DNA from: a virus
Lineage: Duplodnaviria > Heunggongvirae > Uroviricota > Caudoviricetes
Reading direction: 5' to 3' (one strand)
DNA length: 64,000 nt
IMG/VR virus record: IMGVR_UViG_3300031784_000011
Location: 1-64,000 of that record
Part shown: positions 23,044 to 44,079 of the stretch, in pieces
Layout: each line of letters starts with the position of its first letter
How positions within the stretch are numbered: the first letter of the stretch is position 1
Program-made: the position numbers and the translations under genes
The notes under the pieces: model-generated
Databases searched by the model: none
Told to the model about the DNA's origin: nothing
Seen by the model: the letters and a program-made list of their open reading frames with translations, nothing else

Positions 23044-24420
23044 TTACTTATCAGAATTCAAGTTACCTTGAATTGACCATGTGAAATCTAATTTAACATC
23101 ATTCTTAAATAACGATGTGTCCATCATATCAATGTATTGATTTGTGGTGTATCCATTCTTACCCGTCATAGTCGACAATGCGTGACATGACATACAGTTT
23201 GTTTGCATTCCATACACAAAATCAGGTCTGAATTTGTTTTGTAAACTGAAAACTTTTGGACCAAATCCACCCTCTAAATAAGGATTGAAAGCAAGTATCG
23301 GTCTAGCGTTGTTGTCAGAACCGCCACTCACAGGTTGATTCGGCCAAACCATTGCGTATGCTGTACTAACTGCGTAGTGTGAAGCGGCGCCTTTAAGTTC
23401 TTTAGGTCTAAGACCTGCTTCAAATTTAGAACTTGGTGAAGGAGGGTTAGACGGGTCAGGGCACCAAAAATAAGTTTGCCATGTCCAATTTTTAAATTCT
23501 TTTGTTGTTACGTGCATGGCTACCAACAACACATAGTCACCTTCGATAAATTGTCTACTTGGTGTAGTTCCAACGTCTTGGTGACTATTGAGATAGTCCG
23601 CACCTACTCTATCAATTTTATAATTAATAAAATCATTTACGTTACAGGTCGCATCTTTAATTTGTTCCTCTGTGGGATTTGATGTTGTTACAGGTACTAA
23701 CTTTTTATTCGGTTCCTGTTTATTATTAACATCGGCGTAAACCCATTGTTGCCATTCATTATATCTATACGCTTTGGCCGGATTTGGTGATACCCAAACA
23801 GGTACTCTAATCAAACCGTTTTTACTTGGTACACCAGCATAATATGTTGGTTTGGTGGTGATTGAAGTATTAGGAAATTCAGGTACCGCACCAATTCCAT
23901 CTTTTACCAAATATTTGTTCAATGACGATTGATTAAATAATTTGTTTGATGTTGCAAAATGTGCCGCAGATGGGTCATAAGAAACTGTTTCCAACACAGT
24001 GAAGTTTGTGTCAATCTTTTGTCCCGCGAAAAGTTTACCATGTACAAATTGTTTCGGGATGTTAAGTTCAGTTCTGTTTGATTTTTCCATTGAACTTGAA
24101 ACTTGACCCTGTGCAGACATTGCAGATAGTTCTTGAACACCCATCCAAGTTTCAAAAACCAACAATGTTTGACCATTGTATTTTTGTTTTGTTGGTTGAG
24201 TAAGTCCAGCCCAAATACCCCACGCGTGATTTACAATACTGGTTGTATCTTGATTCTCTAACCATCCGTAAATTTTCGTAGAGTCTTCAGGAAAATTGAA
24301 TCCCGAAATACCTAAGTCCGTTGGGAACTCTTGTGGTTTAATTGTTTTACTCGTGTCAGAACATGAGTATACGATTGTAAACAATCCTAAAATTAATAAT
24401 AGTGTTTTTGTAATTTTCAT
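23044..24420 (-). CDS. secreted lipoprotein with CxxCH motif
   Basis: Signal peptide plus lipobox (LFTIVYSC). C-terminal NCMSCHAL contains a c-type heme-binding-like CxxCH. Confidence 0.5.
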   Translation of the reverse strand: MKITKTLLLILGLFTIVYSCSDTSKTIKPQEFPTDLGISGFNFPEDSTKIYGWLENQDTTSIVNHAWGIWAGLTQPTKQKYNGQTLLVFETWMGVQELSAMSAQGQVSSSMEKSNRTELNIPKQFVHGKLFAGQKIDTNFTVLETVSYDPSAAHFATSNKLFNQSSLNKYLVKDGIGAVPEFPNTSITTKPTYYAGVPSKNGLIRVPVWVSPNPAKAYRYNEWQQWVYADVNNKQEPNKKLVPVTTSNPTEEQIKDATCNVNDFINYKIDRVGADYLNSHQDVGTTPSRQFIEGDYVLLVAMHVTTKEFKNWTWQTYFWCPDPSNPPSPSSKFEAGLRPKELKGAASHYAVSTAYAMVWPNQPVSGGSDNNARPILAFNPYLEGGFGPKVFSLQNKFRPDFVYGMQTNCMSCHALSTMTGKNGYTTNQYIDMMDTSLFKNDVKLDFTWSIQGNLNSDK

Positions 24421-24424
24421 TTTT

Positions 24425-24673
24425 TTATTTGTTTTTATTTTTATTTTCTATAACTATGAACTTATTTATTTCGTGAAGAACTTCGGCAGTATCATATCTT
24501 ACACTATAAACCACGTCCCATATTGTTCTATCATTATAAGAAGGGTGTAATCTTGATTGGGCCCATTTTTTGGCTTTATTAAAATCCTCTACTGACCATT
24601 TTACTGGTTCAACTATTGTTGGGGAATTTAAACGCCTAAGTTTCATCAATAGCAGTTTTAAAAATTTAATCAT
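24425..24673 (-). CDS. hypothetical protein
   Basis: 82-aa ORF. Confidence 0.45.
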   Translation of the reverse strand: MIKFLKLLLMKLRRLNSPTIVEPVKWSVEDFNKAKKWAQSRLHPSYNDRTIWDVVYSVRYDTAEVLHEINKFIVIENKNKNK

Positions 24674-24709
24674 CTATATTTTTCAATTATCTGTTATGTT
24701 TTGGTGTAT

Positions 24710-24795
24710 AACCAATAACCAATTGATAACTAAACCAACCAATTATTAATTCATAATCACCATTTAACCAACTGTTATATGTTATTTTAACATAT
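24710..24795. repeat. AACCAA direct-repeat array plus 8-bp-arm inverted repeat in a 170-bp noncoding gap
   Basis: AACCAA at 24710, 24717, 24733, 24737 and 24766. Inverted repeat atatgtta-ttt-taacatat at 24777-24795. Confidence 0.4.
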
Positions 24796-24845
24796 GGTAA
24801 AATATAAGATTGATATACAACTTTGTCAATACTTATTTTCATAGT

Positions 24846-26171
24846 TTAATTACTTAAGGGTGCTTTAATCGATGGGTGTGATTGATAATTTTCGATTTGA
24901 AAATCCTTATTTTCCAAATGAGTTATTAAAGATGAGTCTTCAGATAATGATTTATAAAATTCATCGGTCTTCATATGTTTTAGTTTGGGTAATTTATAAG
25001 GTTCTCTTGTGTATCGTGGTATTTTATATATCTCATAATATTCAGACATACCTCCACCAAATGGTGCTAAGTCTTTCAACGCACTTTTATAACCATTAGG
25101 ACCCATCGCCTCTTTTAACATACCTTCTCTCTCTTCATGTGTATACTTTCTACCGATTTGTTCTCTTGCTTGTTCAACATGGTTACTATACAAATGAGTA
25201 TCACCTAAATTACCAATCAACTCATCAGGTACCATATTTACTTCTTTAGCAATAATCTCAAGTAACAAACCGTAAGAAGCAATATTGAATGGTAGACCTA
25301 AGAATGTGTCTACTGAGCGTTGATTCCACATTAAAGAGATTGCTCGTTTAGGAACTCTTAAACTATCCATGTGAACATCGTGATAATCACTACTTTGATT
25401 TAAAGGGTCTTTTGTTGAGTTATAATAATTAATCCTTTCATCTAAACTCAACTCTCTCGTATAAACTTGAAATCCATAATGACAAGGTGGAAGAACCATT
25501 TGGTCCAGCTCTCCAACATTCCAAGCATTGACCATTAATCGTCTTGAGTCTGGATTTGTTTTAAGGTCGTTGATTAGGTTTGTGATTTGGTCTATTGAAT
25601 TGTTTTGGTATTCTATTTTGACACCATACTTGGTAACATCTTCACCGATTTCAATTGCTTTTAGTACTCTGTGTTGGTCAGAACCTTTTACATCCTTTAA
25701 GTCGTAATTAGTCACATTCTTTCTACCCCATCTTCTCCATTGCTTACCATACACAGGTCCGAGGTCACCCCACTTCTTAGCAAACTCATCATCGGTTTTT
25801 ATTTTGTTGATGAATTCTTCTTTTGTTAATCGAAATCCTAACTCTAACATTTTTTCTTTTGACATATTAGGTAAGATTTTGGCATCTTCAATTAGATAGT
25901 TCTTATACGCATCACCATCCCAAATATGACAATTGTTATCAACAAGGAACTTGATGTTTGTATCACCACGAAGGAACCATAACAATTCGGTTACCATCGT
26001 CTTCCACGCCATTTTCTTGGTTGTAAGTAATGGAAACCCATCGGACATTTTATGACGGATTGTATAACCAAAAATAGATTTGGTTCCTGTACCTGTACGG
26101 TCTTTCTTTTCTACCCCATAATCTATAATAGTTTGGAGTAAGTCTGTGTATTGTTTATCTAATTTGTTCAT
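24846..26171 (-). CDS. thyA: thymidylate synthase (ThyA type, with insertions)
   Basis: LLTTKKMAWKTMVTELLWFLRGDTN and the catalytic-Cys region LPPCHYGFQVY match ThyA. 441 aa implies large inserts. Confidence 0.85.
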   Translation of the reverse strand: MNKLDKQYTDLLQTIIDYGVEKKDRTGTGTKSIFGYTIRHKMSDGFPLLTTKKMAWKTMVTELLWFLRGDTNIKFLVDNNCHIWDGDAYKNYLIEDAKILPNMSKEKMLELGFRLTKEEFINKIKTDDEFAKKWGDLGPVYGKQWRRWGRKNVTNYDLKDVKGSDQHRVLKAIEIGEDVTKYGVKIEYQNNSIDQITNLINDLKTNPDSRRLMVNAWNVGELDQMVLPPCHYGFQVYTRELSLDERINYYNSTKDPLNQSSDYHDVHMDSLRVPKRAISLMWNQRSVDTFLGLPFNIASYGLLLEIIAKEVNMVPDELIGNLGDTHLYSNHVEQAREQIGRKYTHEEREGMLKEAMGPNGYKSALKDLAPFGGGMSEYYEIYKIPRYTREPYKLPKLKHMKTDEFYKSLSEDSSLITHLENKDFQIENYQSHPSIKAPLSN

Positions 26172-26785
26172 TACTCAAATGTTTGAATTTTTGCGTCTAC
26201 TTCTTTTAATTCAGACCACGTTCCAAGATACGTAATCGCTCTGACTTTTCTATTATCAATCCACACATATTCTTGGTCATCTTTGATTCTTGGTTTGTCC
26301 ATAACCAATCCGTGATATTTAAAACCTTTTTCTTTTAACCATGTTTCGGTTACTTCACGGTCTTTACTTTCACGAGCGGTAAAAAATGTAATTACATTTC
26401 CCTCATCGTACCATTTGTTGATGATACCCAACGCGTTTGGGTAATGGTTAGCTGTCGGATAAAGATGTGAATCTTCATTTTTAATGTCGTCACAAATTGT
26501 CCCATCAATATCAATCAGAAAAACCCGACTAACCATTTTTTGCGTTATTATGATGTCAGCAATTGTACTATGAAAAATATCATCGTACATTACTTGACAA
26601 TTTGTTTTTAAAACATACTCGACTTCATCACCGTCTTTTACATCATATTTTCCGCTTTTTATTTTTTCTAAAGTTTCTTTTGATGCTTCAAAATTCTTTG
26701 ATGAATCTTCAGAAACAATAAACCATCCTTCGACACTGTTAATAAGTTCGTCAGATTTTTTTTGATATATTAATTTACCTTTCAT
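26171..26785 (-). CDS. HAD-family phosphatase
   Basis: RVFLIDIDGTICDD (motif I). Confidence 0.5.
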   Translation of the reverse strand: MKGKLIYQKKSDELINSVEGWFIVSEDSSKNFEASKETLEKIKSGKYDVKDGDEVEYVLKTNCQVMYDDIFHSTIADIIITQKMVSRVFLIDIDGTICDDIKNEDSHLYPTANHYPNALGIINKWYDEGNVITFFTARESKDREVTETWLKEKGFKYHGLVMDKPRIKDDQEYVWIDNRKVRAITYLGTWSELKEVDAKIQTFE

Positions 26786-27179
26786 TTCTAACCCATTTTC
26801 TATCTGAATTTAATGTAAAAGCACCAATAAAATCGTCACCCCGATTCCAATCTTTTGGTGATAATAATGATAATGTATTTACACCATTAAAATTATATAA
26901 GTAATATGTTTCACCAACAATTGGGTCAAAAGAAATTTTTGATTCCCAAACCATTATTGAATCCACATACTCTCTTTGAAGTTTTTCTATTGATTGAATG
27001 ATTTCTTCTCTTTGACGATTAAAGACATCAATCATTTTTTTTGAGGACTCTTTTTTTACGAGACCCACATTAGGTAATTCAAATTTTGGCGAACCGATAC
27101 TGGTAGGATAATGCTTTCTATTAGCGTCGTACCCATTTGTTTCATCCCAAACAACAATATCAGGTTTCTTTTTATTCAT
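26775..27179 (-). CDS. hypothetical protein
   Basis: 134-aa ORF. Confidence 0.45.
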   Translation of the reverse strand: MNKKKPDIVVWDETNGYDANRKHYPTSIGSPKFELPNVGLVKKESSKKMIDVFNRQREEIIQSIEKLQREYVDSIMVWESKISFDPIVGETYYLYNFNGVNTLSLLSPKDWNRGDDFIGAFTLNSDRKWVRNER

Positions 27180-27331
27180 CCTCCAAACCGTCCATTAAAG
27201 TTACGTCCCAATCTGAAAAATCGTCACCTAATTCCATACCCAATTTCAAATTTTCCAAAAAATTTTTTTCCCATTCCTCATAAGAAAGATTTGAGTTGGG
27301 ATTTTGTTTAATGTAAATTTTATATTGTCTT

Positions 27332-27760
27332 TTAAGGGTTGACATCGTTTTGTTCAGAATCTCTTATGTCAATTAATTTTTGAATTCTACTCCTACCTTT
27401 TTCACCAATTGGTACCGGATTACCTTCTTCATCAATCCTAACAAACCTTATGTTTGTTTTCAAGATGACAATTTGGTTACCTGTGTAAACATTATGTGCT
27501 CTTGCTTCCATATACAAGGTAACTGAAGTATTCCCTAATTTACTTGGTGACCCGTAAATTTTAATCAACTGACCCTCTTTGGCTGGTTTTTCAAAAAAAC
27601 ATTTATCAATTGATACGGTAACTAATCTTGGTGAATCACACAATTGCATGGAGTATCCCGCAGCCGCCGCGTCAATCCACGCTAAAAGTTTTCCACCGAA
27701 TAAATTTCCGTGGAATCCTAAATCCGACTTTTTTATGGGGTGTGAATTCAAAAATTCCAT
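27332..27760 (-). CDS. hotdog-fold acyl-CoA thioesterase (YciA/4HBT-like)
   Basis: HGNLFGGKLLAWIDAAAAGYS aligns with the YciA-type thioesterase active-site helix. Confidence 0.65.
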   Translation of the reverse strand: MEFLNSHPIKKSDLGFHGNLFGGKLLAWIDAAAAGYSMQLCDSPRLVTVSIDKCFFEKPAKEGQLIKIYGSPSKLGNTSVTLYMEARAHNVYTGNQIVILKTNIRFVRIDEEGNPVPIGEKGRSRIQKLIDIRDSEQNDVNP

Positions 27761-28108
27761 TACTCAAAAGTTATTTGTTCTCTAATAATGTATTCTTTTA
27801 ATGCGTTTTCCGCTTCTATTTTAGTTGCAAAAACCCCAATAGTTTGGTCAAATTCTGTTGGGTCGGACACACCAAATTGTCCGTTTAATGTTTCATAAAT
27901 GAACGTATCTAAAATTTGTTGACTTACCATAATTAATTTATATTTCTTGATTTTTATTTGATTCCGATTCTTGATTTATTGATTCAGAATTTTTAGTCTC
28001 TTGCATTTTCTTAAATAAATTCATCAATGTGGACTCTTCTCTCTTTAATCTTTGATTACGAGCTTGAACTTTTTTTCTATGTTCTTTGTCTTTTTTTCCC
28101 ATGGTATT

Positions 28109-29233
28109 TTATTCTTCTTCATCTTTTCGATAACTTTCCAAGAGTTCCTCCCCTGAAAGTGTACCGTATTTATTTACAATTTTTTCGGTGTCTATTTCAA
28201 CATTCATCATGTGATGAACATTATTTAATTCTTCGGCTAATGATAAACTATCACTAATCACTTTAACGATTTTATATGGGTCCGCGTGTGATGCTGGTCT
28301 CCTGTCTTCAAGATAACCCTTCCATGTCTCACCAACGGATTTTGGTACACGGATAGATGCACCTCTGTCTGAGACACCCCAACTAAATTTATCAATAGAT
28401 TGTGTCTCAAAATGACCTGTTAATCTCAAATGGTTATCAGAACCATAAGAGTCAATATGTTCTTGTGTTCTTGATTCAAAAGACCTAAAAATTGCATTGA
28501 AGTATTGTTCACCACCCTCTTCTCTCATTTTTTGATTTGAGAAATTTGTATGTAAACCTGAACCGTTCCATTCTCCGTGGGTCATCGGTTTGGGATGTAA
28601 CTCAATAGAACGACCATATTTCTCAGCAATTTTATGTAAAAAATATCTACTCATCCATAAATCATCAGAAGCGGCAATTTTACCTGTTGCAAAAATTTGG
28701 TATTCCCATTGACCTAATGCAACCTCTGAATTGGTTCCCTCCACATTGATGTCATATTTTAAACACATGTTCAAATGTTCATCAGAAATATTTCGACCAA
28801 CAATATGTCCACCTACACCACAATAATAAATTCCTTGACCGTCAATGATACCATTTCTTTCAAATCCAAGAATTGGATTATTATGTGAAGAACGAATAAA
28901 ATATTCCTGTTCAAATCCAACCCAAAAATTTACATCTTCCTCACCTACTTTTGCTCTATGATTTGATGGATGAATTTCATTATTACCATCTAAAACCTCA
29001 CATAATACATATACTGTATCAAGTGAACTATTTGTATGATATAATTTTACTGGCTTAAGATAACAATCTGAAAAGTTACCTTCCGCTTGTTTAGTTGAGC
29101 TTCCGTCAAACCCCCAATTGGGGATGTGTTTCAATTCAAATGGTGCCGGTAGGTCCACAATTTTTATTTTACTTCTGAGATTTGGCTCAGGGGAATACCC
29201 ATCAAGCCATACGTATTCTACTTTTGTTTTCAT
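28109..29233 (-). CDS. glutamine synthetase, type II (eukaryote-like) family
   Basis: EYVWLDG, FDGSSTKQAEG, YYCGVG, WMSRYFLHKIAEKYG...HPKPM..GEWNGSGLHTNFS and RGASIRVP are the GSII signature blocks in the correct order. Confidence 0.8.
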   Translation of the reverse strand: MKTKVEYVWLDGYSPEPNLRSKIKIVDLPAPFELKHIPNWGFDGSSTKQAEGNFSDCYLKPVKLYHTNSSLDTVYVLCEVLDGNNEIHPSNHRAKVGEEDVNFWVGFEQEYFIRSSHNNPILGFERNGIIDGQGIYYCGVGGHIVGRNISDEHLNMCLKYDINVEGTNSEVALGQWEYQIFATGKIAASDDLWMSRYFLHKIAEKYGRSIELHPKPMTHGEWNGSGLHTNFSNQKMREEGGEQYFNAIFRSFESRTQEHIDSYGSDNHLRLTGHFETQSIDKFSWGVSDRGASIRVPKSVGETWKGYLEDRRPASHADPYKIVKVISDSLSLAEELNNVHHMMNVEIDTEKIVNKYGTLSGEELLESYRKDEEE

Positions 29234-29439
29234 TTTTTATAATATATGTTTTTCTGTATCTGAATACCGACCATAAAAATTAAGAATCTCAAAGCCAAAC
29301 CCCAGCTTGGTGAGGTTGCACCGGTTTCAAAAAACGTGTCTTTACGGTAGTAAAATATGGGAGTTGGTAAAAGAAACCAATGGTATTTCTTTCTTATTAC
29401 AAAAAAATCCGTGATGTATTTCTTTTCTTTATTTGACAT
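29230..29439 (-). CDS. small hypothetical protein
   Basis: 69-aa ORF overlapping the GS start by 4 nt. Confidence 0.3.
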   Translation of the reverse strand: MSNKEKKYITDFFVIRKKYHWFLLPTPIFYYRKDTFFETGATSPSWGLALRFLIFMVGIQIQKNIYYKK

Positions 29440-29549
29440 TTTTTTTCTTTTTTAAATAATCTAAAACTATATTGAATGAACCAAGAGAAATTATACCAAA
29501 TCCAAAATATTTTTCAATCTCGGGATTACTGGTGTTCATTCCGTATTTT

Positions 29550-29795
29550 TCAATTATGATTCCCGTCAGAATCATCAGTACGTAAATTATTGTCCTTATA
29601 TTCATATGTTTTTAAGTATTGAATTGTTTTATATAACGTGTGTGTTTCCCTCATGTTAAAAACACCGGAATAATGACCATGTTGTAAACCCATTTCAATA
29701 ATTTGAATTGCCATCTGTGGGTTTAAATTATCTAAAACCATTTCCAATTCATCATTATTGTCAAAATTTAATTGGTCGTTGAATAGTCCTTTCAT
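29550..29795 (-). CDS. hypothetical protein
   Basis: 81 aa. A TATATTTT element sits 6 nt upstream of the ATG. Confidence 0.45.
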   Translation of the reverse strand: MKGLFNDQLNFDNNDELEMVLDNLNPQMAIQIIEMGLQHGHYSGVFNMRETHTLYKTIQYLKTYEYKDNNLRTDDSDGNHN

Positions 29796-29819
29796 GATAT
29801 TAAAATATAGTAAACAAAT

Positions 29820-30215
29820 ATGATAAAGTCAAATATTTATAAAAATATGTCAGTGATTATTAATAATACAAAGTTCCCTGCGGAATACCTATCCGAACCT
29901 GAAGAAATTAGTCAAGGTATGATGGGTAGAGATAATTTAAATGGTTGTATGGTTTTTAATATGGGTGGTGTTGGTCACCATTCTTTTTGGATGAAAAACT
30001 GTTTAATACCTTTGGATATTGTTTTTGTATTGAAAAATAGAATCAGTAAAATACATAGAAATTGTGAACCCGCTGGTCAAAATGAATTGAACCCAAAAAG
30101 ATACACCGGCATAGGTGACCATGTTATTGAGTTTCCCGCCGGTGTTACTGATAAATTTAAAGAAGGTGACCGAGTTAATATGTATTTGGGAACACCTATG
30201 AATCCTGTCCGTTAA
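29820..30215 (+). CDS. DUF192-family protein
   Basis: GMMGRDNL...GMVF...FWMKNCLIPLDIVF matches the COG1430/DUF192 core. Confidence 0.55.
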   Translation: MIKSNIYKNMSVIINNTKFPAEYLSEPEEISQGMMGRDNLNGCMVFNMGGVGHHSFWMKNCLIPLDIVFVLKNRISKIHRNCEPAGQNELNPKRYTGIGDHVIEFPAGVTDKFKEGDRVNMYLGTPMNPVR

Positions 30216-30217
30216 TT

Positions 30218-31072
30218 TTATTCTTCAAACATTACCAGTTGTTTCTTTTGGTTATCATAATCAATCAATCTCTGTTGAGATATCTTTGTGTAAGATTCTG
30301 ATAACTCAAAACCAATATAATTTCTATTCAGCTTCTTAGCTGACAAAGCGGTGGTTCCACTTCCTGAAAAACAATCAACAATCAGGTCATTTTGATAGGA
30401 AAGTATTTTTATTGCTTTCATTGGGATGTCCATGGAGAATGTGGCTTTAGTTAAAGATTTTGTGTCGTTGAAGTATTTCCATTGACCAAAGACTAATTCC
30501 ATGAATTCGTTTTTGTCTTTATCTGAATAAACCCTTTTGTTTTTAAAATTACCTTCCTCGTTTTCGACCTCAATCTGATTATAAGACCATTGAGATATAC
30601 CTTTTTCTTTCTTTTTGTAATCTTTCTTATATGCAAGAATTACACATTCTTTTGGATTGTATATGTATGGTGATGATGGTGACATCCAAGAACCCCAAGC
30701 GGTTGTTTTAGAACGGTGTGGAGAATCCTCCTCTAAGTCCACAACACCAAAGAATCCAAAACCAATCTCTTTCATCATCTGCCAATATTCAGATACTAAG
30801 AAAATTCTCCCACCTCTTTCTCTAACGTTTATTTCATATGGTATATTCAAGGCAATTCTACCATCATCTTTTAATGTACGGTAAACTTCGGATAACCATT
30901 TCTTACACCACTCAAAATACTCATCCATCGGAGCATCGTCTTTGTGCACATCATAACTAATACCGACATTGTACGGTGGACTCGTAACAAAGAGGTCTAC
31001 AGTACCGTCATTTAACTCCTTAAACAGTTCTAAGCAGTCACCCTGATAAATTTTATTCATTTCCATTGACAA
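30218..31072 (-). CDS. beta-class DNA methyltransferase (N4-C or N6-A)
   Basis: LFVTSPPYNVG (motif IV) is N-terminal and DCFSGSGTT (motif I) is C-terminal, which is the beta-class order. The ORF-track start is TTG; the first ATG is 2 codons in. Confidence 0.75.
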   Translation of the reverse strand: MSMEMNKIYQGDCLELFKELNDGTVDLFVTSPPYNVGISYDVHKDDAPMDEYFEWCKKWLSEVYRTLKDDGRIALNIPYEINVRERGGRIFLVSEYWQMMKEIGFGFFGVVDLEEDSPHRSKTTAWGSWMSPSSPYIYNPKECVILAYKKDYKKKEKGISQWSYNQIEVENEEGNFKNKRVYSDKDKNEFMELVFGQWKYFNDTKSLTKATFSMDIPMKAIKILSYQNDLIVDCFSGSGTTALSAKKLNRNYIGFELSESYTKISQQRLIDYDNQKKQLVMFEE

Positions 31073-31153
31073 ATTGTTTTCTATTTATTATTATTACAAA
31101 AGATAACGAATAAAAAACAATAAACCAAAATATTTATAAAAAAACTTAAAATC

Positions 31154-31339
31154 ATGGGATGCGGATGTAAAAAAAGAAACCAACCTGTTAGTAATCAAAC
31201 GGTAAACATTCAACTAACCGAAGGTGGTTCAACACCTCCACAGGAGATTACAATTATGGAACAACAACTTGACCAAATCATAAAAAAGGTTGAGGAGATT
31301 AACAATCAAACTAACGAAGAAAACACAGAAGGACAATAA
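31154..31339 (+). CDS. small hypothetical protein
   Basis: MGCGCKKRNQ...; 61 aa; followed by a strong terminator. Confidence 0.4.
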   Translation: MGCGCKKRNQPVSNQTVNIQLTEGGSTPPQEITIMEQQLDQIIKKVEEINNQTNEENTEGQ

Positions 31340-31342
31340 ATT

Positions 31343-31379
31343 GTATCGGACAGTCTAATAAATTGTCCGATATTTTTTG
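31343..31379 (+). terminator. intrinsic terminator
   Basis: 9-bp stem tatcggaca / tgtccgata (31343-31351, 31364-31372) with an 11-nt loop, then ttttttg. Confidence 0.55.
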
Positions 31380-31415
31380 TCTTTTATAATATATATAAAT
31401 TTATATACTTATATT

Positions 31416-31616
31416 ATGCCTAAACAACAAACAAAACTAACCAGCGTTAACATCATAGATGATGTTTATAAAAGATTTAAGATAAAAAGTGTAGATGGTT
31501 CAATCAATCTACAAAAATTAGTAAACCGAGCTCTTGACCTATATAACACTAGAGAAGATTTTAGAAAACAAATTGATAATCACAACGGTCTTGCACCAAA
31601 CGGTTCCAAATTTTAA
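31416..31616 (+). CDS. ribbon-helix-helix (Arc/CopG-like) DNA-binding protein candidate
   Basis: Start taken at MPKQQ. KLTSVNIIDDVYKRFKIKSVDGSINLQKLVNRALDLY fits a beta-strand, helix, loop, helix RHH pattern. Confidence 0.4.
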   Translation: MPKQQTKLTSVNIIDDVYKRFKIKSVDGSINLQKLVNRALDLYNTREDFRKQIDNHNGLAPNGSKF

Positions 31617-31665
31617 GTTGTGAATTTTATTTCTTATATTATCATCAATATTTTAAAACAAAAAA

Positions 31666-33123
31666 ATGATTACAATAGGTTACAGTACAAGAGAGTCCAA
31701 CCCAAAATTTCAAGAATATTTAAAAAAAACTTGTGGACACCCCAAAGTTCAAGTTATTGAAAAAGTAAACAATGGTGAAAAAAGTCTTTCACAAACTTAC
31801 AATGAAATTATTCAAGAGTCGATTCATGATATTGTCGTACTTTGTCATGATGACATTTACTTTAATACGACTTCGTGGGGTAGAAAATTAGTCAAACATT
31901 TTGAAGAATCTGACTACGGGATTCTCGGTGTTGCCGGTACAACCAATATTCATGAGAGTGGTAGGTGGTGGACAGATAATACCAAAATGGTTGGTATTGT
32001 TAATCATGAAAATGAGGGTAAAAAATGGGAATCGAGATATGCAAATGGAATCCCAAATTCAATTCACGAAGTTTGTTTAGTGGATGGTTTATTCATTGGA
32101 ATCCACAAAAACAGAATAAAACACACTTTTGATGAGTCAGTACCGGGTTTTCATTTTTATGATATGGTATTCTGTACTAGCAATCACTTAAGTGAGGTAA
32201 ACATCGGTGTTATATACAACATAAGAATCACTCACAAATCAATCGGAATGACCAATGATTCTTGGGAAAAGAATAGGGAATTTTACATTGAAAAATTTAA
32301 AGAGAACCTACCAATTAATATAACACCAAAAATTGATTATGACATAACCAAACCAAAACAGTTTAAAGATAAATTTAATTTAATAGTTCAAACATCAAAC
32401 GATAATGAAAATTTAATTCAGTTTTTTGAAAACATAAAAAAATTACCAGTGTTTGATAGTTTACAGATTTCACTCATCTCGACGGATACCAATATAGACA
32501 ATATTAGAGAATTTGAATCTGAAAATATTAAAATTTACGAGGGTTTTTTTGATACATTAAATAAAAACTTATCAGTACTGAAATGGGATGAATCGTTTAT
32601 GGAATCAAAAACAGATTTGTTATTTTTCAGTAATGATACTGTTACCGTATTGAACGACGTTTTCTCAAGTATGTATTCAATATTTAAGAGTGAAAAAAAT
32701 ACTTTTGGGTGCGTCTTTCCTACAGTATTAGAAAACGACCGAACAATTTTTTCAAATGGATTGGATATAGTTCAAAACAACGAACAGTTCAATTTAATTT
32801 TTAAAAACAAATCATCTTTTTTCAATATTTTACACGGACACTTTCCAAACAATTTTGGTAGTATTAGTGACTTTTTTGCCACTACATCTACAAATTTAAA
32901 AATGATTGATTGGTTTGATATTAATTTAGAAACATCAATTTATAACTTAGATTTTGCGTTGAAAACTTTACTTAAAAAACGTAAAACATTCATTGACACA
33001 AACAGTGTGGTAATGATTGATATGGCATCAAAATTTGAAAAGGTTGATGTTGAATTAAAACAAGTCTTAGGTCAGTACATAAACTCACCTGAAATTAGAA
33101 AAAATATCAAACAATTAAGATGA
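31666..33123 (+). CDS. GT-A fold glycosyltransferase (family 2-like) with C-terminal extra domain
   Basis: CHDDIYF (DxD) and GFHFYDMVF are typical of GT2-type nucleotide-sugar transferases. Confidence 0.5.
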   Translation: MITIGYSTRESNPKFQEYLKKTCGHPKVQVIEKVNNGEKSLSQTYNEIIQESIHDIVVLCHDDIYFNTTSWGRKLVKHFEESDYGILGVAGTTNIHESGRWWTDNTKMVGIVNHENEGKKWESRYANGIPNSIHEVCLVDGLFIGIHKNRIKHTFDESVPGFHFYDMVFCTSNHLSEVNIGVIYNIRITHKSIGMTNDSWEKNREFYIEKFKENLPINITPKIDYDITKPKQFKDKFNLIVQTSNDNENLIQFFENIKKLPVFDSLQISLISTDTNIDNIREFESENIKIYEGFFDTLNKNLSVLKWDESFMESKTDLLFFSNDTVTVLNDVFSSMYSIFKSEKNTFGCVFPTVLENDRTIFSNGLDIVQNNEQFNLIFKNKSSFFNILHGHFPNNFGSISDFFATTSTNLKMIDWFDINLETSIYNLDFALKTLLKKRKTFIDTNSVVMIDMASKFEKVDVELKQVLGQYINSPEIRKNIKQLR

Positions 33124-33899
33124 TAAAAATTGTATCGGGATTTACAGAAAAAGGTGGTTCTACCACTTTTTTTATAAACTTAACAAATTTCTTAAATGAA
33201 AATGGTATTGATTGCACATTTTACGGTAATCAGAATTACCATTTAGACAAATGTAAATCAGGGAACATTGAAAAAGATTTAAAGTATGAATCTGATGATA
33301 TTGTAATTACCCATTTTTTACAACTACAGGAAAGACCACCTGTTAAAAAAGTTATTTTGTCTTGTCATGAAAAATGGTGGTTCCCTGTTGGTAAAATTAA
33401 ACAGTATTGGGACCTGTGCGTGTTTTTACATGAAGAGCATCGAAAATATCACTCGGATTACAGGGGTGATTATGTAATAATACCAAACATCAAAGAAAAT
33501 TTAATTATTTCAAATAAAGAGCTGGTAAGAAATATTGCAGGAATTATTGGTACAATTGAAGACAGAAAACAGACCCATGTGTCAATACAAAGAGCATTAA
33601 AAGACAGGTGTGAAAAAATCTATTTGTTCGGTCACATCGGTGACCAAAACTATTTTGACAAATTGGTAAAACCTTTAATGAATCCAAGAGTAATTCATTA
33701 CGGTCACACCACCAATAAACAAGAAATGTACGATATGATTGGTAAGGTATATCACTCATCAAAGGGTGAGGTTGCTTGTTTGGTTAAAGATGAATGTTAT
33801 TTAACCGGTACAGAGTTTTATGGTAATGAAGAGACTATGAATGAAGTTTCTAAATTAAGTAACGAAGAGATATTAACACTTTGGAAAAACATATTTTAA
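33120..33899 (+). CDS. GT-B (group 1-like) glycosyltransferase candidate
   Basis: N-terminal SGFTEKGGSTTF resembles the GT4 G-rich loop. Confidence 0.3.
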   Translation: MIKIVSGFTEKGGSTTFFINLTNFLNENGIDCTFYGNQNYHLDKCKSGNIEKDLKYESDDIVITHFLQLQERPPVKKVILSCHEKWWFPVGKIKQYWDLCVFLHEEHRKYHSDYRGDYVIIPNIKENLIISNKELVRNIAGIIGTIEDRKQTHVSIQRALKDRCEKIYLFGHIGDQNYFDKLVKPLMNPRVIHYGHTTNKQEMYDMIGKVYHSSKGEVACLVKDECYLTGTEFYGNEETMNEVSKLSNEEILTLWKNIF

Positions 33900-33900
33900 A

Positions 33901-34623
33901 ATGAAGATACACGCACATATACTGTCATGGAATGAAGAAAAAATATTACCATTCACATTGGATTACTATAGTACAATCTGTGAAAAAATATTCATATACG
34001 ATAATATGTCAACGGACTCCTCTGATGAGATTTATAAGAGGTACCCAAAAGTTGAGGTTATTAAATGGGATAGTGGTAATGAAATAAATGAAATTAATTA
34101 CGTAAACATTAAATCCGAAGAGTATAAAAAAAGAAGTAGAGGTCAGGGTGTTGATTGGGTTATAGTTTGTGACTGTGATGAGTTTATATACCATGAAAAT
34201 CTTATGGATAAACTTCAAGAGTACAAAGAAATGGGTATAACCGTCCCAAGAATAGACGGTCACGACATGGTTAGTACTGAATTTCCAATATACGACGGTG
34301 AATTCATTACAACAAAAATTAAAACAGGTTCACAAACGTATGAACCAATGTGTAAAAATATAATTTTTCATCCTGATTTAGATATAAAATACGGCATTGG
34401 TGGTCACAGTTTTAATTCTGTTGATGGTAAATTTTCGGATGAGCGGGAAATAAAACTTCTTCACTATAAATTCTTGGGTAAAGACTACGTGAAGAACATT
34501 TACATTTCAAGAGCAAAGAGATTGTCATCGTTCAATAAACAACATAAATTCGGTGAACATTATTTTAATTTACCATTCAATTACATGGACAGCATGTTAA
34601 AAGAAAATTATCAAGTTATATGA
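33901..34623 (+). CDS. GT-A type glycosyltransferase candidate
   Basis: ILSWNEEKILPFTLDYY...VIVCDCDEF (DxD). Confidence 0.4.
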   Translation: MKIHAHILSWNEEKILPFTLDYYSTICEKIFIYDNMSTDSSDEIYKRYPKVEVIKWDSGNEINEINYVNIKSEEYKKRSRGQGVDWVIVCDCDEFIYHENLMDKLQEYKEMGITVPRIDGHDMVSTEFPIYDGEFITTKIKTGSQTYEPMCKNIIFHPDLDIKYGIGGHSFNSVDGKFSDEREIKLLHYKFLGKDYVKNIYISRAKRLSSFNKQHKFGEHYFNLPFNYMDSMLKENYQVI

Positions 34624-35441
34624 GGAAAATACTTATATCGGATTTTACCATTAAAGAAGTACCTCACGGTGGTTCTGAATGGGTGAATCAAGTTTTAATT
34701 GATAGATTTAATCTTGAGTTTGAATATTCAAACCAAGTCAAGTCATTTGATTACAACGCCCTGTATATTATATCAAATATTTCTTTGATGAACCCAAACT
34801 TGGTTAATCAAATACAAAATTTGAACTACGTCATTATTGAAAACGATTATAAAATATGTGCAAGTAGACACCCATGGAGATATACCGACAACATAATTCC
34901 GATTGAGGAAAGAACCAACTATTCTCTTTACCGGAATGCAAAAGCGGTATTTGTTCAAACAACCGACCACATGAACGTTTATCTTAAAAACGATGTTGTT
35001 GCTAATTTTATAAATCTGAATAGTTCGATATGGTCAAATGAGGACTTAGAATTATTGAGGAATTTAAATAAATCCAACAATGTTAAAAACGACAAATATT
35101 CTGTTTACTATACAAATAATTGGATAAAGAACACCCAAGGTAGTCTGAAGTATTGTTCTGAAAATAAATTACCGGTCCATATTCTTAAAGAATCTAAAGA
35201 CAGAGTTGAATTTTTAAGTAATATGGCCAAATGTAAAGGTATTGTGTTTTTCCCGATAGCAAGAGAAACTTTTTGTAGACTGGTTGTTGAGGCAAAATGT
35301 TTAGGTTTGGAAGTAATAACGACACAAAATTATGGTGCAAGTTTAGAAGAATGGTTTAATAGGTTATCAGGTGATGAATTAATTGATTTCTTAGAAACTA
35401 ACACTTTAAAAAATTTAGAAATCATTTCAACTTATATATGA
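34620..35441 (+). CDS. GT-B (group 1) glycosyltransferase candidate
   Basis: N-terminal VPHGGSEWV and C-terminal ARETFCRLVVEAKCLGLEVITTQNYGASLEEW match the GT4 conserved loops. Confidence 0.45.
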   Translation: MRKILISDFTIKEVPHGGSEWVNQVLIDRFNLEFEYSNQVKSFDYNALYIISNISLMNPNLVNQIQNLNYVIIENDYKICASRHPWRYTDNIIPIEERTNYSLYRNAKAVFVQTTDHMNVYLKNDVVANFINLNSSIWSNEDLELLRNLNKSNNVKNDKYSVYYTNNWIKNTQGSLKYCSENKLPVHILKESKDRVEFLSNMAKCKGIVFFPIARETFCRLVVEAKCLGLEVITTQNYGASLEEWFNRLSGDELIDFLETNTLKNLEIISTYI

Positions 35442-36430
35442 TATTATTTTGTTACGGCACAAGACCTGAGTATATTAAAATAAAAAAATTAATAGAAATG
35501 TGTGGGGAAAGTATTCCCCATAAAATTTTATATGTTACCCAACACAAAGATATTGTATTGGGTGATTTTGATTATAAATTATCCATTGATGATACGTGTG
35601 AAAATAGATTGGATAGTATTATGTCATCCGTATTTTTAAATTTTAAAAAAGAATTTTTGGAAGGGGTTACACATATACTTATCCAAGGGGACACCGCAAC
35701 CGCTCTTTCATTATCCCTAATAGGATTACACCATAAAAAAGAAGTGATTCATTTAGAAGCGGGATTACGGACATATGACTACAATCACCCTTACCCCGAA
35801 GAAATGTATCGGCAGTTAATTAGTAGAATTTCAAACTATAATCTTTGCCCAACAGAAAGTAACAAGATGAACTTAGAAAATGAAAAAGTTCAGGGTAAAA
35901 ATTTTGTAGTTGGCAATACCGTATTAGATAATCTTAATAAAGAAAATATTACATACGAAAATAAAGTCTTAATCACTTTACATAGAAGAGAGAATCATGA
36001 GATGATGTCGGAGTGGTTTGATGTTATCAATCGATTAGCAAAGAATAATCCTGAATTAAAATTCATTCTTCCAATACACCCAAACCCAAACGTCATAAAA
36101 CACAAACATATATTGACACATGTTGATGTTATTGAACCATTAACCCATGATAAATTTATTGAGGAATTCAAATCCTGTAAATTACTAATTTCAGATAGTG
36201 GGGGTGTTCAAGAAGAGGCGTCGTTCCTAAATAAGAAAGTTATTGTATGTAGAGAAAAAACTGAGAGACCTGAGTCCTTGGGTAAAACGTCTTTTATATG
36301 TAAAAAACCCATTGACTTAGAAGGTATTTTTTACGATATTATTAACGATTTCCAAACAGAATATGATTGTCCTTTTGGTGATGGTAATTCTTGTGAAAGA
36401 ATCATTGAAATATTTAGAAAAATTGTATGA
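35438..36430 (+). CDS. UDP-N-acetylglucosamine 2-epimerase (non-hydrolysing, WecB-like)
   Basis: HLEAGLRTYDYNHPYPEEMYRQLISRISNYNLCPTE and DSGGVQEEA match the epimerase_2 family. Confidence 0.75.
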   Translation: MILFCYGTRPEYIKIKKLIEMCGESIPHKILYVTQHKDIVLGDFDYKLSIDDTCENRLDSIMSSVFLNFKKEFLEGVTHILIQGDTATALSLSLIGLHHKKEVIHLEAGLRTYDYNHPYPEEMYRQLISRISNYNLCPTESNKMNLENEKVQGKNFVVGNTVLDNLNKENITYENKVLITLHRRENHEMMSEWFDVINRLAKNNPELKFILPIHPNPNVIKHKHILTHVDVIEPLTHDKFIEEFKSCKLLISDSGGVQEEASFLNKKVIVCREKTERPESLGKTSFICKKPIDLEGIFYDIINDFQTEYDCPFGDGNSCERIIEIFRKIV

Positions 36431-37155
36431 GTATAACGGTAATATTAAATGGGTATAAAAGACCACATGTTCTCCAAAAACAATTGGAATCAATTAGAAA
36501 TCAAAGTGTCCAACCCGAATCAATTTTATTTTGGCAAAATTCTGGTTCTCAATTTGATGAGGGACTAACCAAAGATTTAATTCACGCATCTTGTAATAGT
36601 AATTTAGGTGTGTGGGCAAGATTTGCATTTGCTTTAAATGCCAACACAGAATATATTTGTGTTTTTGATGATGACACAATACCGGGTAAACTATGGTTAG
36701 AAAACTGTCTAAACACCATGAAAATTCAAGAAGGTTTATTAGGAACTATCGGTGTAAAATTTCACACAAAAAACTCTTATTGGCCAGCAACAAGAGTCGG
36801 TTGGGACCAACCTAACGAAGAAATTGAAAAGGTCGACATTGTTGGTCACTCGTGGTTCTTTAAAAGAGAATGGTTATCGATATTTTGGAGAGAATTACCT
36901 GAAATCAATCAGAGTAAATTAGTTGGTGAGGATATGCACTTTTCATATACATTACAGAAATACGCAAATATCGGAACTTACGTTCCTCCCCATCCTAAAG
37001 AAAATAGAGAAATGTGGGGTAGTATACCAGAATATGCATGGGAACATGGAACTGATTCCAACGCAATTTCCGTAAATCATTCAAATATGAATTTAATGGG
37101 TGAAGTTTACCGTGGGTATGTAAATAAAGGATTTAAGACAATATTAAATGATTGA
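36427..37155 (+). CDS. family-2 glycosyltransferase
   Basis: ITVILNGYKRPHVLQKQLESIRNQS and FDDDTIPG (DxD). Confidence 0.5.
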   Translation: MSITVILNGYKRPHVLQKQLESIRNQSVQPESILFWQNSGSQFDEGLTKDLIHASCNSNLGVWARFAFALNANTEYICVFDDDTIPGKLWLENCLNTMKIQEGLLGTIGVKFHTKNSYWPATRVGWDQPNEEIEKVDIVGHSWFFKREWLSIFWRELPEINQSKLVGEDMHFSYTLQKYANIGTYVPPHPKENREMWGSIPEYAWEHGTDSNAISVNHSNMNLMGEVYRGYVNKGFKTILND

Positions 37156-37867
37156 AAAGTATATTGAAGATTTTAATTCGTTTTGGGAAAAGATAGATAG
37201 TCGAACTAACTTTTCTTTTGTTAGATATGCCGATGGTGAAGTGATGTTAATGAATAATTCACCGATAGAAAAGAATACACAAGCGTATCAAAACGATAAA
37301 TGGTTTTCGAGTGGGGGACAAACCAAATTAGGTGTGGATTTAAATGAATGTATAGGGTTGAACGACCCAAATTTTTATTTTGCAATATCCTCCAAAACTG
37401 ATAGTATTAGAGACTATAATTTTTTATATGATAGAATACAAAATAAATCAAACATTACATTTGCTAACCTATGGATTAACGCAAATTACAAAGAAAATAT
37501 ATCAAGAATAAGAAATATAAATCGAGATGTTGTTTTAATTTGTAATGAAAATTGTGATTTAAAAAACATACCATTTAGTGTATCAGAATTTGTACCGTTC
37601 CCTAATGATTGTGTAAACTATTGGGAAGAACATAGAGATTCGTTTTTAGAAAAAATATACAATGTTTCTTCAAAATATAAAGATACTTTATTTATCGTAT
37701 GTTGTGGACCAACATCTGCTGTTATCATAAAACATATGTTTACAAATAATAGTAATAACACTTATATTGATTTTGGTTCCGCATTAGATGTATTCATACA
37801 TAATAAAATAACTAGACCATACATGTATGAAGGGTCACAATATCATAATCACATATCAAAATTTTAA
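37148..37867 (+). CDS. GT-D type (DUF1792-like) glycosyltransferase candidate
   Basis: FVRYADGEV, CCGPTSAVII and IDFGSALD echo the GT-D/DUF1792 motifs. Confidence 0.35.
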   Translation: MIEKYIEDFNSFWEKIDSRTNFSFVRYADGEVMLMNNSPIEKNTQAYQNDKWFSSGGQTKLGVDLNECIGLNDPNFYFAISSKTDSIRDYNFLYDRIQNKSNITFANLWINANYKENISRIRNINRDVVLICNENCDLKNIPFSVSEFVPFPNDCVNYWEEHRDSFLEKIYNVSSKYKDTLFIVCCGPTSAVIIKHMFTNNSNNTYIDFGSALDVFIHNKITRPYMYEGSQYHNHISKF

Positions 37868-37873
37868 TTCAGT

Positions 37874-38464
37874 ATGAATAATGATTTTTGTGTCATAGTA
37901 CAAGGACCTTCAGACTACGTTAAAGAATTAAAAAACGCTTGGACTGGTTATGATTTGATTTGGTCAACATGGCAAGGTGAAGAATCAAAATACGATACTA
38001 ATGATGTTGTCTTATTCAACAGTATTCCACACGATAGGGGTGTACAAAATATAGCACTACAAAAAATATCAACTTTGAATGGAATAATGAAAGCCAAAGA
38101 AATAGGTTACAACAGAGTCCTTAAATGGAGAAGTGATTTACTACCATCTAATGCAAATAGATTAGTTTCCACATTTAAAAAAGAGTGTGTAAATTTTTTG
38201 ACTTGGCATAATGAAGGAAAATATTTTGTTGATTATTTTGTGGAGGGTGAAATAGATACGGTGTTTGATATTTGGAATGTATCTACCATACACGATGAGT
38301 ATTCGGAAAAAATAATCACGGAAAATATAATATCACTTAACTATAAAAATATAAACTTTATGGGTGGCGAATTAAGTAATGATAATGAAATTTTTTGGTT
38401 AAAACGAAATATTAATTTGTCCACATATAAAGACGCACCATGTTATAGTATGGTGGTGATTTAA
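37874..38464 (+). CDS. hypothetical protein (possibly WavE-like LPS biosynthesis)
   Basis: N-terminal CVIVQGPSDY. Confidence 0.3.
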   Translation: MNNDFCVIVQGPSDYVKELKNAWTGYDLIWSTWQGEESKYDTNDVVLFNSIPHDRGVQNIALQKISTLNGIMKAKEIGYNRVLKWRSDLLPSNANRLVSTFKKECVNFLTWHNEGKYFVDYFVEGEIDTVFDIWNVSTIHDEYSEKIITENIISLNYKNINFMGGELSNDNEIFWLKRNINLSTYKDAPCYSMVVI

Positions 38465-38475
38465 AAATTATAAAA

Positions 38476-39210
38476 ATGATAGATAATTCAAAATTTATTG
38501 ACGACGCATTTACTCAAGATGAATTAAATAGGGGTGCCTTTACCGATTTGAATGGTAGATGTCCATTATGGACAACAAAAATGATTAATGTTATAAAAGA
38601 TAAAATTGACTTTAATGATGTCAACACAATATTAGATATTGGGTCAAGAGATGGTTGCCAAAGTTTAGAGTTAAATAGATGGTTTCCACATGCTAAAATA
38701 TATGCGTTTGAACCAGTAAAAGAAAACTACGAATTTACAGTTAAGAACGTTGAGAAAATTAATAACATAAAAGTTTACCAATACGCAATAAACAATTACA
38801 ACGGTAAAACTAAATTTTACGAAGTTTATAATGGAAATGTGGGTGCCAGTTCTTTATTACAGACAACAAACCACTGGCGTTCATCTCAGTGGGCCCAAAA
38901 GGAAACTGAGGTTGACTGTATTGTTCTTAGTGATTGGTTAAAAGAAAATGATATTAAAAGTGTTGATTTGATTTGGATGGATGTTCAAGGTGCAGAAAAT
39001 ATCGTATTAGACTCTCTAAAAGAATATTTAAATGATGTAAAAATAATAACCACCGAAGTAGGGTTACAGGAATTATATCGTGGTTCTACAAGTAAATCTG
39101 AACTAGATGAAAAACTAAATAGGTTTATACCAATAGACGAGTCGCCAGAATCTTCAAACACAGAAATGGATGTGGTTTATATCAACAAAAATTTAACACC
39201 TTATGGATAA
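38476..39210 (+). CDS. FkbM-family SAM-dependent methyltransferase
   Basis: ILDIGSRDGCQSLEL...AFEP and the overall FkbM pattern. Confidence 0.55.
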   Translation: MIDNSKFIDDAFTQDELNRGAFTDLNGRCPLWTTKMINVIKDKIDFNDVNTILDIGSRDGCQSLELNRWFPHAKIYAFEPVKENYEFTVKNVEKINNIKVYQYAINNYNGKTKFYEVYNGNVGASSLLQTTNHWRSSQWAQKETEVDCIVLSDWLKENDIKSVDLIWMDVQGAENIVLDSLKEYLNDVKIITTEVGLQELYRGSTSKSELDEKLNRFIPIDESPESSNTEMDVVYINKNLTPYG

Positions 39211-39904
39211 TAAAATTTGTTACGTTACTTATACAAATTCAAAATGTTCAGATATTTTGGATATGTTCTTGTTAGAACAAAAAAAGTACACAAACTTACC
39301 GATGTATTTTATTACAGATGTAATGATACCCGAGCAAATTTGTTTTTTATATGAAAATCAAGAACCTTATTATGAATCATGGTTAAAGTGTTTATCTTCA
39401 ATACCATATGACTATTTTATATACTTACAAGAAGACTTTATTCTTTATAACAATGTCAGTCATGATAAAATTTTTAATTACCTCGATTTTTTACATGATA
39501 ACCAAGAATATTCGTTCATTAGATTGTTAAAATCGGGGTCTGTTAAAGATAAAAAAATTTATGAGACCTTATATGAAATAGAATCCGACAATAAAGATAT
39601 ATTTTCTATGCAACCAACTATTTGGAAAAAAGATGATTACATTAAAATCATGAAAGGTACCAAAAATAATATGTGGTTAGAGAATGAAACATATAGAAAT
39701 TTTATGATAGAAAACAACATCAAAGGTTTATATCATTACGATGGTGAAAACAAAAGGGGGTTGAATCATTTTGATAGTTCTGTTTATCCATATATAGCAA
39801 CGGCTTTAGTTAGAGGTAAATGGAATTTATCTGAATACCCTAATGAACTCTCTCCATTAATAAATGAATATGAAATAAACGTAAATGTTCGGGGGATACA
39901 TTAA
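39203..39904 (+). CDS. hypothetical protein
   Basis: 233-aa ORF inside the sugar island. Confidence 0.4.
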   Translation: MDNKICYVTYTNSKCSDILDMFLLEQKKYTNLPMYFITDVMIPEQICFLYENQEPYYESWLKCLSSIPYDYFIYLQEDFILYNNVSHDKIFNYLDFLHDNQEYSFIRLLKSGSVKDKKIYETLYEIESDNKDIFSMQPTIWKKDDYIKIMKGTKNNMWLENETYRNFMIENNIKGLYHYDGENKRGLNHFDSSVYPYIATALVRGKWNLSEYPNELSPLINEYEINVNVRGIH

Positions 39905-39906
39905 TA

Positions 39907-40581
39907 ATGAAAATTGTTCTATCTTTTTACACCAACAATAAATTTAGTAACACCGTTCAAAAATTAATCGGATATTATAATTCACGTGGTTTCAATGATA
40001 TCCGAGGATTTAAATCTGAAGATGTTAAGAAAGGTATTTTTTATGAAAACCATAAAGAAATATTAGATTGTGAAACGGGTGATGGATTTTGGTTGTGGAA
40101 ACCAAAAATTATTTTAGATATTTTGAATGAATTAGAAGATGGGGATGCATTAATTTATACCGATGCCGGTGATTTAGTTGATGTTGATTATAATACGATT
40201 GCAAATTATTTGAAAGATAATGATTATTATTTTACAAATTGGAATGGAAATCGTTGGCCTCAAAAAATATGTACAAAAAGAGACTGTTTTATCTTGATGG
40301 ATTGTGATGAAGAAAAGTTTCATGAAACACCACAGATGGAAGCAGGATTTATCATCATTAAAAAAACCAAACAAATGATGGAATTTGTTCACGATTATTT
40401 TAAGTATTGTAGTATTAAACAGATAGTTGACAATGAACCAAATCAAATTGGTGAGAATTTTCCAAATTGGCAATTCCATAGAAATGACCAAAGTATATTA
40501 ACTAACTTGGTTGTGAAACATAATTTAAAATTTGATTATTGTCTCGATTATAGAATAAAATACAACGTATATATACCATGA
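39907..40581 (+). CDS. hypothetical protein (possible DxD glycosyltransferase)
   Basis: GFWLWKPKIIL...IYTDAGD. Confidence 0.35.
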   Translation: MKIVLSFYTNNKFSNTVQKLIGYYNSRGFNDIRGFKSEDVKKGIFYENHKEILDCETGDGFWLWKPKIILDILNELEDGDALIYTDAGDLVDVDYNTIANYLKDNDYYFTNWNGNRWPQKICTKRDCFILMDCDEEKFHETPQMEAGFIIIKKTKQMMEFVHDYFKYCSIKQIVDNEPNQIGENFPNWQFHRNDQSILTNLVVKHNLKFDYCLDYRIKYNVYIP

Positions 40582-44078: not shown

Positions 44079-44079
44079 A

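Follow-up and report, generated by a model that had tools for sequence, protein, structure and literature searches.

A type II glutamine synthetase gene with a clade-specific acidic tail in a phage genome fragment from IMG/VR

Here, we describe a gene for a type II glutamine synthetase (GSII) in a 64,000-nucleotide (nt) stretch of phage DNA, hereafter called the window (positions 1 to 64,000 of IMG/VR virus record IMGVR_UViG_3300031784_000011; Caudoviricetes). The coding sequence (28109 to 29233, minus strand) is complete from ATG to stop codon and specifies 374 amino acids (aa), with matches in Pfam, NCBIfam, and PDB. It comprises an N-terminal beta-grasp domain, a catalytic domain, and an acidic C-terminal extension specific to a clade of related viral proteins (the phage clade). 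That glutamine synthetase (GS) genes occur in large aquatic phages has already been published; the added value here is in the details, and both the typing as GSII and the clade-specific tail seem undescribed so far.

Gene identity and active site

Judged by its sequence, the open reading frame (ORF) is a GSII, with a match far beyond chance. An earlier note on this DNA had claimed that all GSII signature blocks are present in order, and every block that it quoted was found in that order: EYVWLDG (residues 6 to 12), FDGSSTKQAEG (42 to 52), YYCGVG (136 to 141), GEWNGSGLHTNFS (220 to 232), and RGASIRVP (290 to 297). The metal-ligand blocks are FEQEY (107 to 111) and YLEDRRP (307 to 313). The beta-grasp domain (residues 4 to 82; 28988 to 29224, minus strand) was delimited with Pfam Gln-synt_N (PF03951; E value, 4e-9; 36.4 bits against a gathering cutoff of 33.4) and residue mapping, and the catalytic domain (residues 95 to 330; 28244 to 28951, minus strand) with Pfam Gln-synt_C (PF00120; residues 95 to 320; E value, 4e-17; 62.9 bits against a gathering cutoff of 24) and mapping onto human GS. 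The best NCBIfam model was GlnII (E value, 2e-96; 323 bits; profile positions 1 to 328 of 333), and the models for GSI and GSIII reached 47.5 and 28.7 bits. PDB matches to GSII chains had E values from 6e-82 (Streptomyces coelicolor, 4bax) to 4e-71, and those to GSI chains were 6e-8 or weaker.

A monomer was modeled with AlphaFold2 (AF2; predicted local distance difference test [pLDDT], 73; predicted template modeling score, 0.76) and searched with Foldseek, where the top 50 hits were all GSII and 4bax came first (template modeling scores, 0.71/0.77). GSII is a decamer of two stacked pentameric rings with its active sites at subunit interfaces; low pLDDT in loops 127 to 141 and 273 to 304 of the model is consistent with loops that become ordered at such interfaces.

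The functional set was taken from human GS, in which 26 substrate-binding residues had been scanned by alanine replacement (PMC6601560), with a cryo-electron microscopy description of GS as a second source (PMC9713474), and the phage protein was mapped onto the human enzyme twice (HMMER alignment to chain 9otp; large MAFFT alignment). Identity was found at 23 of the 26 scanned residues. By this mapping, they include the metal ligands (E108, E110, E170, E177, H228, and E309), 14 substrate residues (Y137, G166, N223, G224, N230, S232, R237, R270, E276, R290, R295, Y307, R311, and R312), W104, and the two residues D43 and S46, which lie in the N-terminal domain and are the counterparts of D63 and S66 in the ammonium site of the human enzyme; the ammonium-pocket residues D43, S46, Y137, and E276 are all kept. 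Two of the three differing positions (human T191 and P208) were noncritical in the human scan; at the third, human K333 is replaced by W304, and most cellular prokaryotic GSII (52 of 78) likewise have tryptophan there.

Across 172 distinct phage-clade sequences, the 23 identical residues and W304 are invariant, the exception among the mapped residues being the noncritical A182. Checking the metal ligands by alignment, as had been proposed earlier, therefore found every Glu and His ligand kept and invariant in the clade. Four positions conserved in cellular GSII are fixed differently in the phage clade (an extra G97, P to I121, R to K201, and I to V296); all are conservative and none is catalytic. 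The ratio of nonsynonymous to synonymous substitution rates (dN/dS) of the GS core was 0.14 (pairwise Nei-Gojobori estimates from 282 pairs with dS of 0.05 to 0.7, the pairs not being independent), indicating purifying selection.

All of this evidence is in favor of a working GS, and none of it suggests a changed substrate. Relatives of GS that use other amines are known (PuuA and GlnA3-type enzymes), and with these precedents the protein could be read as a GS-fold amide ligase for another amine (gamma-glutamyl-polyamine or ethylamine) or for a DNA or glycan modification step tied to the ThyA-like and glycan genes nearby. We regard such a ligase as very improbable. The gene does have an unusually long ThyA homologue (441 aa) on one side and a glycan cluster on the other, and its score falls below the GlnII equivalog cutoff, but the phage clade keeps D43, S46, Y137, E276, and every glutamate-binding residue without variation, only four conservative differences separate it from cellular GSII, and the gamma-glutamylputrescine synthetase model (NF045547) gave 24.8 bits against a cutoff of 650. 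The alternative-amine enzymes known to us are, moreover, GSI-like rather than GSII. The suggestion in the earlier note of a repurposed ligase thus failed the test proposed for it there, all metal, glutamate, ATP, and ammonium-pocket residues being kept and invariant; signature residues for a new substrate were rejected as a candidate, because only the four conservative clade-specific positions were found.

The C-terminal tail

The clade-specific acidic extension comprises residues 331 to 374 (28112 to 28243, minus strand) and was characterized by alignment, a hidden Markov model (HMM) of the tail, dN/dS, and the AF2 model. Among its last 44 residues, 12 are D or E. Relative to prokaryotic GSII, which ends 1 to 10 aa past query residue 330, the extension measures about 35 to 44 aa; an acidic extension had been noted before and stands, its supposed length of 50 aa being slightly too long. 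All 79 complete homologues on viral contigs reach 41 to 111 aa past residue 330, some sublineages carrying a further segment of about 25 to 70 aa, whereas the 79 cellular GSII compared end within the 1 to 10 aa given above, apart from a few Saprospiraceae that carry an unrelated stretch of about 21 to 24 aa.

The tail HMM (consensus, L.LA..L..TLH.MY.DIDT.KL.EKYGTLS.EELL.EY..D.) matched every full-length member of the clade and had no hits among 79 cellular, 3 huge-phage, and about 147 other GSII representing 50% identity clusters. When it was run against all six-frame ORFs in 1.63 Mb (the window and the fetched loci), it matched GS genes only, and the tail as a shared docking motif was rejected on this result. 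No homologue of the tail was found in Pfam, and the best PDB E values (0.5 to 0.7) were noise. With a dN/dS of 0.19 over the same set of pairs, the tail too is under purifying selection by this measure. In the AF2 model, helices were predicted at residues 319 to 344 (the last core helix, prolonged), 349 to 356, and 361 to 373, with pLDDT of about 86 to 90 up to residue 340 and about 60 beyond.

A helical acidic tail of this kind may alter how the presumed decamer assembles, how stable it is, or how it is regulated, for example by clamping subunits together or by docking a partner, and is probably without effect on the chemistry. We tentatively suggest that it could be a functional module, acting as a ring-ring clamp like the "helical thong" of GSI, as insulation from host feedback or inactivating factors, or as a docking site for a phage partner.

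Genomic setting and relatives

The gene recurs widely in viral assemblies. An identical GS protein is encoded by 36 contigs, the longest of 288 kb (JGI, ENA, NCBI, and Logan data), and is indexed in 63 collection blocks, and 142 IMG/VR viral contigs carry relatives at 63 to 89% identity. In one genome per GTDB species, 537 stretches related to the phage GS were found. Apart from one sequence (L081, described below), the best cellular relatives are 51 to 57% identical and spread over Planctomycetota, Bacteroidota, Verrucomicrobiota, Gammaproteobacteria, Rhodothermota, and Marine Group II archaea, and none of the 537 hits exceeds 57%.

A neighbor-joining tree was built from 308 columns with Kimura distances, and support came from 100 bootstraps of a set reduced to 122 sequences. 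Monophyly of the phage clade with the tail was recovered in 91% of bootstraps, and in 100% with the tail-less L081 added. Kimura distances from the phage GS were 0.63 to 0.69 to aquatic prokaryotic GSII groups, 0.92 to Streptomyces, and 0.94 to 1.03 to eukaryotes, which places the protein, as far as these distances go, in the prokaryotic GSII radiation. "Eukaryote-type," the label given to it previously, is a historical name only, and a eukaryote-derived origin was rejected on distances and tree position. Its equidistance from all aquatic prokaryotic groups, together with monophyly, argues against recent acquisition from any of the host groups sampled and for an old phage-resident gene that diversified inside phages. 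The earlier note had likewise doubted a recent host pickup and was right to; its premise that GSII is foreign to Bacteroidota was weak, since Saprospiraceae, Cytophagales, Flavobacteriales (including Zunongwangia), and Prolixibacteraceae have it. The phylogeny that it called for, run here as a neighbor-joining tree of GSII, did not nest the phage clade in host GS genes and left contamination unsupported. Within phages, the gene has by alignment diverged to about 63% identity with every catalytic residue kept, which indicates long-term selection for activity rather than a transient pickup.

L081 is SHWW01000027.1, a 24.8-kb contig in the metagenome-assembled genome (MAG) "Flavobacteriaceae bacterium Baikal-deep-G76" (Lake Baikal), and carries a tail-less sister of the phage GS. 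The neighbors of this gene (a CobS/CobT-like AAA and vWA pair, a polynucleotide-kinase-like HAD protein, and ORFans with PHROG matches) look phage-like, and L081 is probably a phage contig mis-binned into the MAG.

In the window, the GS gene belongs to a co-directional run (24846 to 29795, minus strand), delimited by ORF coordinates, Pfam matches, and a terminator scan, with the order orf81, orf58, orf69, GS, orf54, orf56, 4HBT thioesterase, orf57, DUF2452, HAD phosphatase, and ThyA. The GS start and the stop of orf69, a small upstream ORF, share 4 nt (29230 to 29233). No terminator-like site was found on the minus strand across the scanned interval 24000 to 31700, a sigma-70 promoter scan was uninformative (39 sites against 39.1 expected), and a tRNA scan found none. 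In a synteny set of 81 loci (80 viral contigs and L081), the most constant neighbor of GS was an N6/N4 DNA methyltransferase (30218 to 31072, minus strand, in the window; Pfam N6_N4_Mtase; E value, 3e-36), located within a few kilobases of GS in 72 loci in two gene arrangements; DUF192 was similarly close in 45 loci, also in two arrangements.

The window has a GC content of 0.29 to 0.35 throughout, long co-directional runs, and many ORFans, and the GC content at third codon positions of the GS gene is 0.23, against 0.27 ± 0.04 for window ORFs. Replication and repair genes include those for a UvrD/Dda-like helicase, an SbcC-like nuclease (at most 25% identical to anything deposited) with its Metallophos partner, a primase, ThyA, and two DNA methyltransferases; further genes encode a sigma-70 factor, ClpP, an Amidase_2 endolysin-like protein, an Hc1 histone-like protein, thioredoxin, and glutaredoxin. 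Embedded between phage-type genes, phage-like in composition, and recurrent in related viruses, the GS gene fits the description of a phage auxiliary metabolic gene (AMG).

That the GS gene comes from cellular DNA, through host contamination, mis-assembly, or a chimeric contig, seems to us scarcely credible. The deposition of L081, the closest tail-less relative, within a Flavobacteriaceae MAG would fit such an origin, as would a 64-kb window in which no virion gene was found. Yet the same protein and neighborhood occur in independent assemblies (the collection blocks and long contigs given above), synteny extends over the 81 loci, composition matches phage, phage-type genes lie on both flanks, the L081 neighbors are themselves phage-like, and no other cellular genome appears above the 57% identity level. 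Host contamination was rejected on synteny, composition, and phylogeny.

A Shine-Dalgarno (SD) core precedes only 2 of the 55 window ORFs, the upstream 20 nt being A-rich in the manner of translation initiation in Bacteroidota, and the only nucleotide match to deposited phages is 150 nt of thyA (92% identical) in Flavobacterium phages vB_FspM_immuto; SD-less starts and the thyA match fit a host that is probably in the Bacteroidota. "Moraphages," according to the available part of their description, are 200- to 307-kb phages, mainly from freshwater, with predicted Flavobacteriia hosts, Hc1 (PF07432) and a sigma factor among their shared genes, GS in 9 of 25 genomes, and a lineage defined by TerL, MCP, and PolB phylogeny (Perez-Hernandez et al., Arch Virol 2025, PMC12619734). 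Likeness to them lies in the 288-kb contig, the Hc1 protein, the sigma factor, GS, SD-less starts, and the thyA match to Flavobacterium phages, and in this comparison of descriptions the window resembles the group, to which it may belong. Of the genes concerned, that for the Hc1 histone H1-like protein (60 aa; PF07432) lies at 48679 to 48861 and that for the sigma-70 family factor at 54129 to 54941; the ClpP protease gene lies at 56227 to 56901 (all minus strand).

The available part of a preprint on huge phages counts 248 GS genes in 247 of 7,295 phages, mostly freshwater and marine, and proposes an AMG role (bioRxiv 10.1101/2025.02.27.640493), and glnA was listed among AMGs in a jumbo-phage survey. 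In the accessible text of the huge-phage and moraphage papers, GS is mentioned, as a gene of phages above 200 kb, at the level of annotation, and the GS type, an active-site check, a phylogeny, and the tail are not given. GSII was present in 4 of 50,697 deposited phage genome records; phage-borne GS, which had been called rare, is so among deposited genomes but not among metagenomic large phages, as the 247 huge phages and the 9 of 25 moraphages indicate. The huge phages of Al-Shayeb also encode GSII (54% identity for LR756501/LR756503 and 43% for LR745206 and LR756502), but those of LR756501.1, LR745206.1, and LR756502.1 (635 to 735 kb) lack the tail and occupy two other tree positions, which implies at least three separate acquisitions of GSII by phages.

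Prokaryotic GSII (GlnII; S. coelicolor 4bax and the proteins of Planctomycetota, Bacteroidota, Verrucomicrobiota, Gammaproteobacteria, and Marine Group II) shares with the phage protein its two-domain architecture, length class, fold, and identical metal, glutamate, ATP, and ammonium residues, at 51 to 57% identity for the aquatic forms. The phage GS is set apart by a monophyletic clade of its own, by a tail of about 40 aa that none of the 79 cellular genes has, and by a score short of the NCBIfam equivalog cutoff. Eukaryotic GSII (human GLUL, yeast Gln1, and plant GS1/GS2) has the same fold and catalytic residues (about 36 to 42% identity in structural alignments) but is more distant than the prokaryotic forms, and its short C-terminal ends are unrelated to the phage tail.

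Several other features of the window were recorded. The ThyA homologue (24846 to 26171, minus strand) is unusually long at 441 aa, its Pfam match extending over residues 6 to 344 yet covering 227 of 266 profile positions; this extent implies internal insertions and leaves about 95 aa as a C-terminal tail. A 12-kb glycan or amino-sugar cluster (31666 to 43775, plus strand) of fourteen back-to-back ORFs begins 2.4 kb from GS and contains several glycosyltransferases, a UDP-GlcNAc 2-epimerase (35438 to 36430), two Methyltransf_21 proteins, and an NAD-dependent epimerase/dehydratase (42714 to 43775). Adjoining genes for glutaredoxin (97 aa) and thioredoxin (101 aa) lie beside an AAA ATPase (43785 to 44385, minus strand). 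A class I/II aminotransferase (4269 to 5378, minus strand; PF00155; E value, 7e-21) and a small MGS-like domain protein (6446 to 6826, minus strand) are possible further candidates for nitrogen and carbon metabolism genes of the same phage.

Proposed role in infection

We consider it likely that the gene encodes a catalytically competent GSII, used as an AMG and carried vertically over a long time by large aquatic phages, which probably infect Bacteroidota and are probably moraphages. An AMG role of this kind has been put forward in the literature for the GS of huge phages and of moraphages alike. The enzyme would catalyze the reaction of glutamate, NH4+, and ATP to glutamine, ADP, and Pi, and during infection it would maintain the flow of ammonium into glutamine without depending on the host GS, which is regulated differently; in freshwater poor in nitrogen, this should be an advantage. 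Glutamine donates its amide nitrogen in the synthesis of purines, pyrimidines, amino sugars, and NAD, and the neighboring amino-sugar and glycan cluster, with its UDP-GlcNAc 2-epimerase, may be one sink for it.

Several results weigh against this interpretation. At 323 bits, the protein misses the NCBIfam GlnII equivalog cutoff (NF041605; 500 bits); it appears divergent from that model, and automatic naming as GlnII would fail despite the end-to-end alignment. Confidence in the AF2 model is moderate (pLDDT, 73; about 60 in the tail), and the model is of a monomer only. Neither capsid nor terminase genes were found within the 64-kb window, and the DNA is taken as viral from the genes that it contains, its inclusion in IMG/VR, and its likeness to lineages already described. 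When the full window was scanned with Rfam at gathering thresholds, neither a glutamine (glnA) riboswitch nor any other RNA family was found. The tree is a neighbor-joining rather than a maximum-likelihood tree, with many unlabeled database representatives. Finally, a search of the window and of about 2.4 kb and 8.4 kb past its two ends turned up no amidotransferase that would consume glutamine, and for this reason the glutamine sink stays a proposal.

The missing amidotransferase sink also bears on a different role. The phage GS might be mainly regulatory, raising glutamine, lowering glutamate or 2-oxoglutarate, or binding host nitrogen regulators through its tail; the outcome would be a false nitrogen-replete signal or the sequestration of a host factor, with bulk glutamine supply secondary. 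A tail that is clade-specific, conserved, under purifying selection, and without a cellular counterpart or another ORF that bears it is in keeping with such a role, and the huge-phage preprint, in its available part, speculates on destabilized host nitrogen networks (bioRxiv 10.1101/2025.02.27.640493). We nevertheless think it unlikely, since the fully invariant catalytic residues indicate that catalysis itself is selected and no binding partner is identifiable. Signaling through glutamine would, besides, still need a working GS, so that this proposal refines the metabolic role more than it replaces it.

If the metabolic role holds and the enzyme is active, this phage lineage would bring its own entry point for ammonium into biosynthesis, with a bearing on how infected cells handle nitrogen in nitrogen-poor lakes. 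The tail offers a concrete handle on the ways in which viruses modify a central host enzyme that is under heavy regulation, since activity, oligomer state, and inhibition can be compared with and without it. If the tail is indeed a functional module, the protein would be a virus-specific regulatory variant of GSII rather than a plain copy of a host enzyme.

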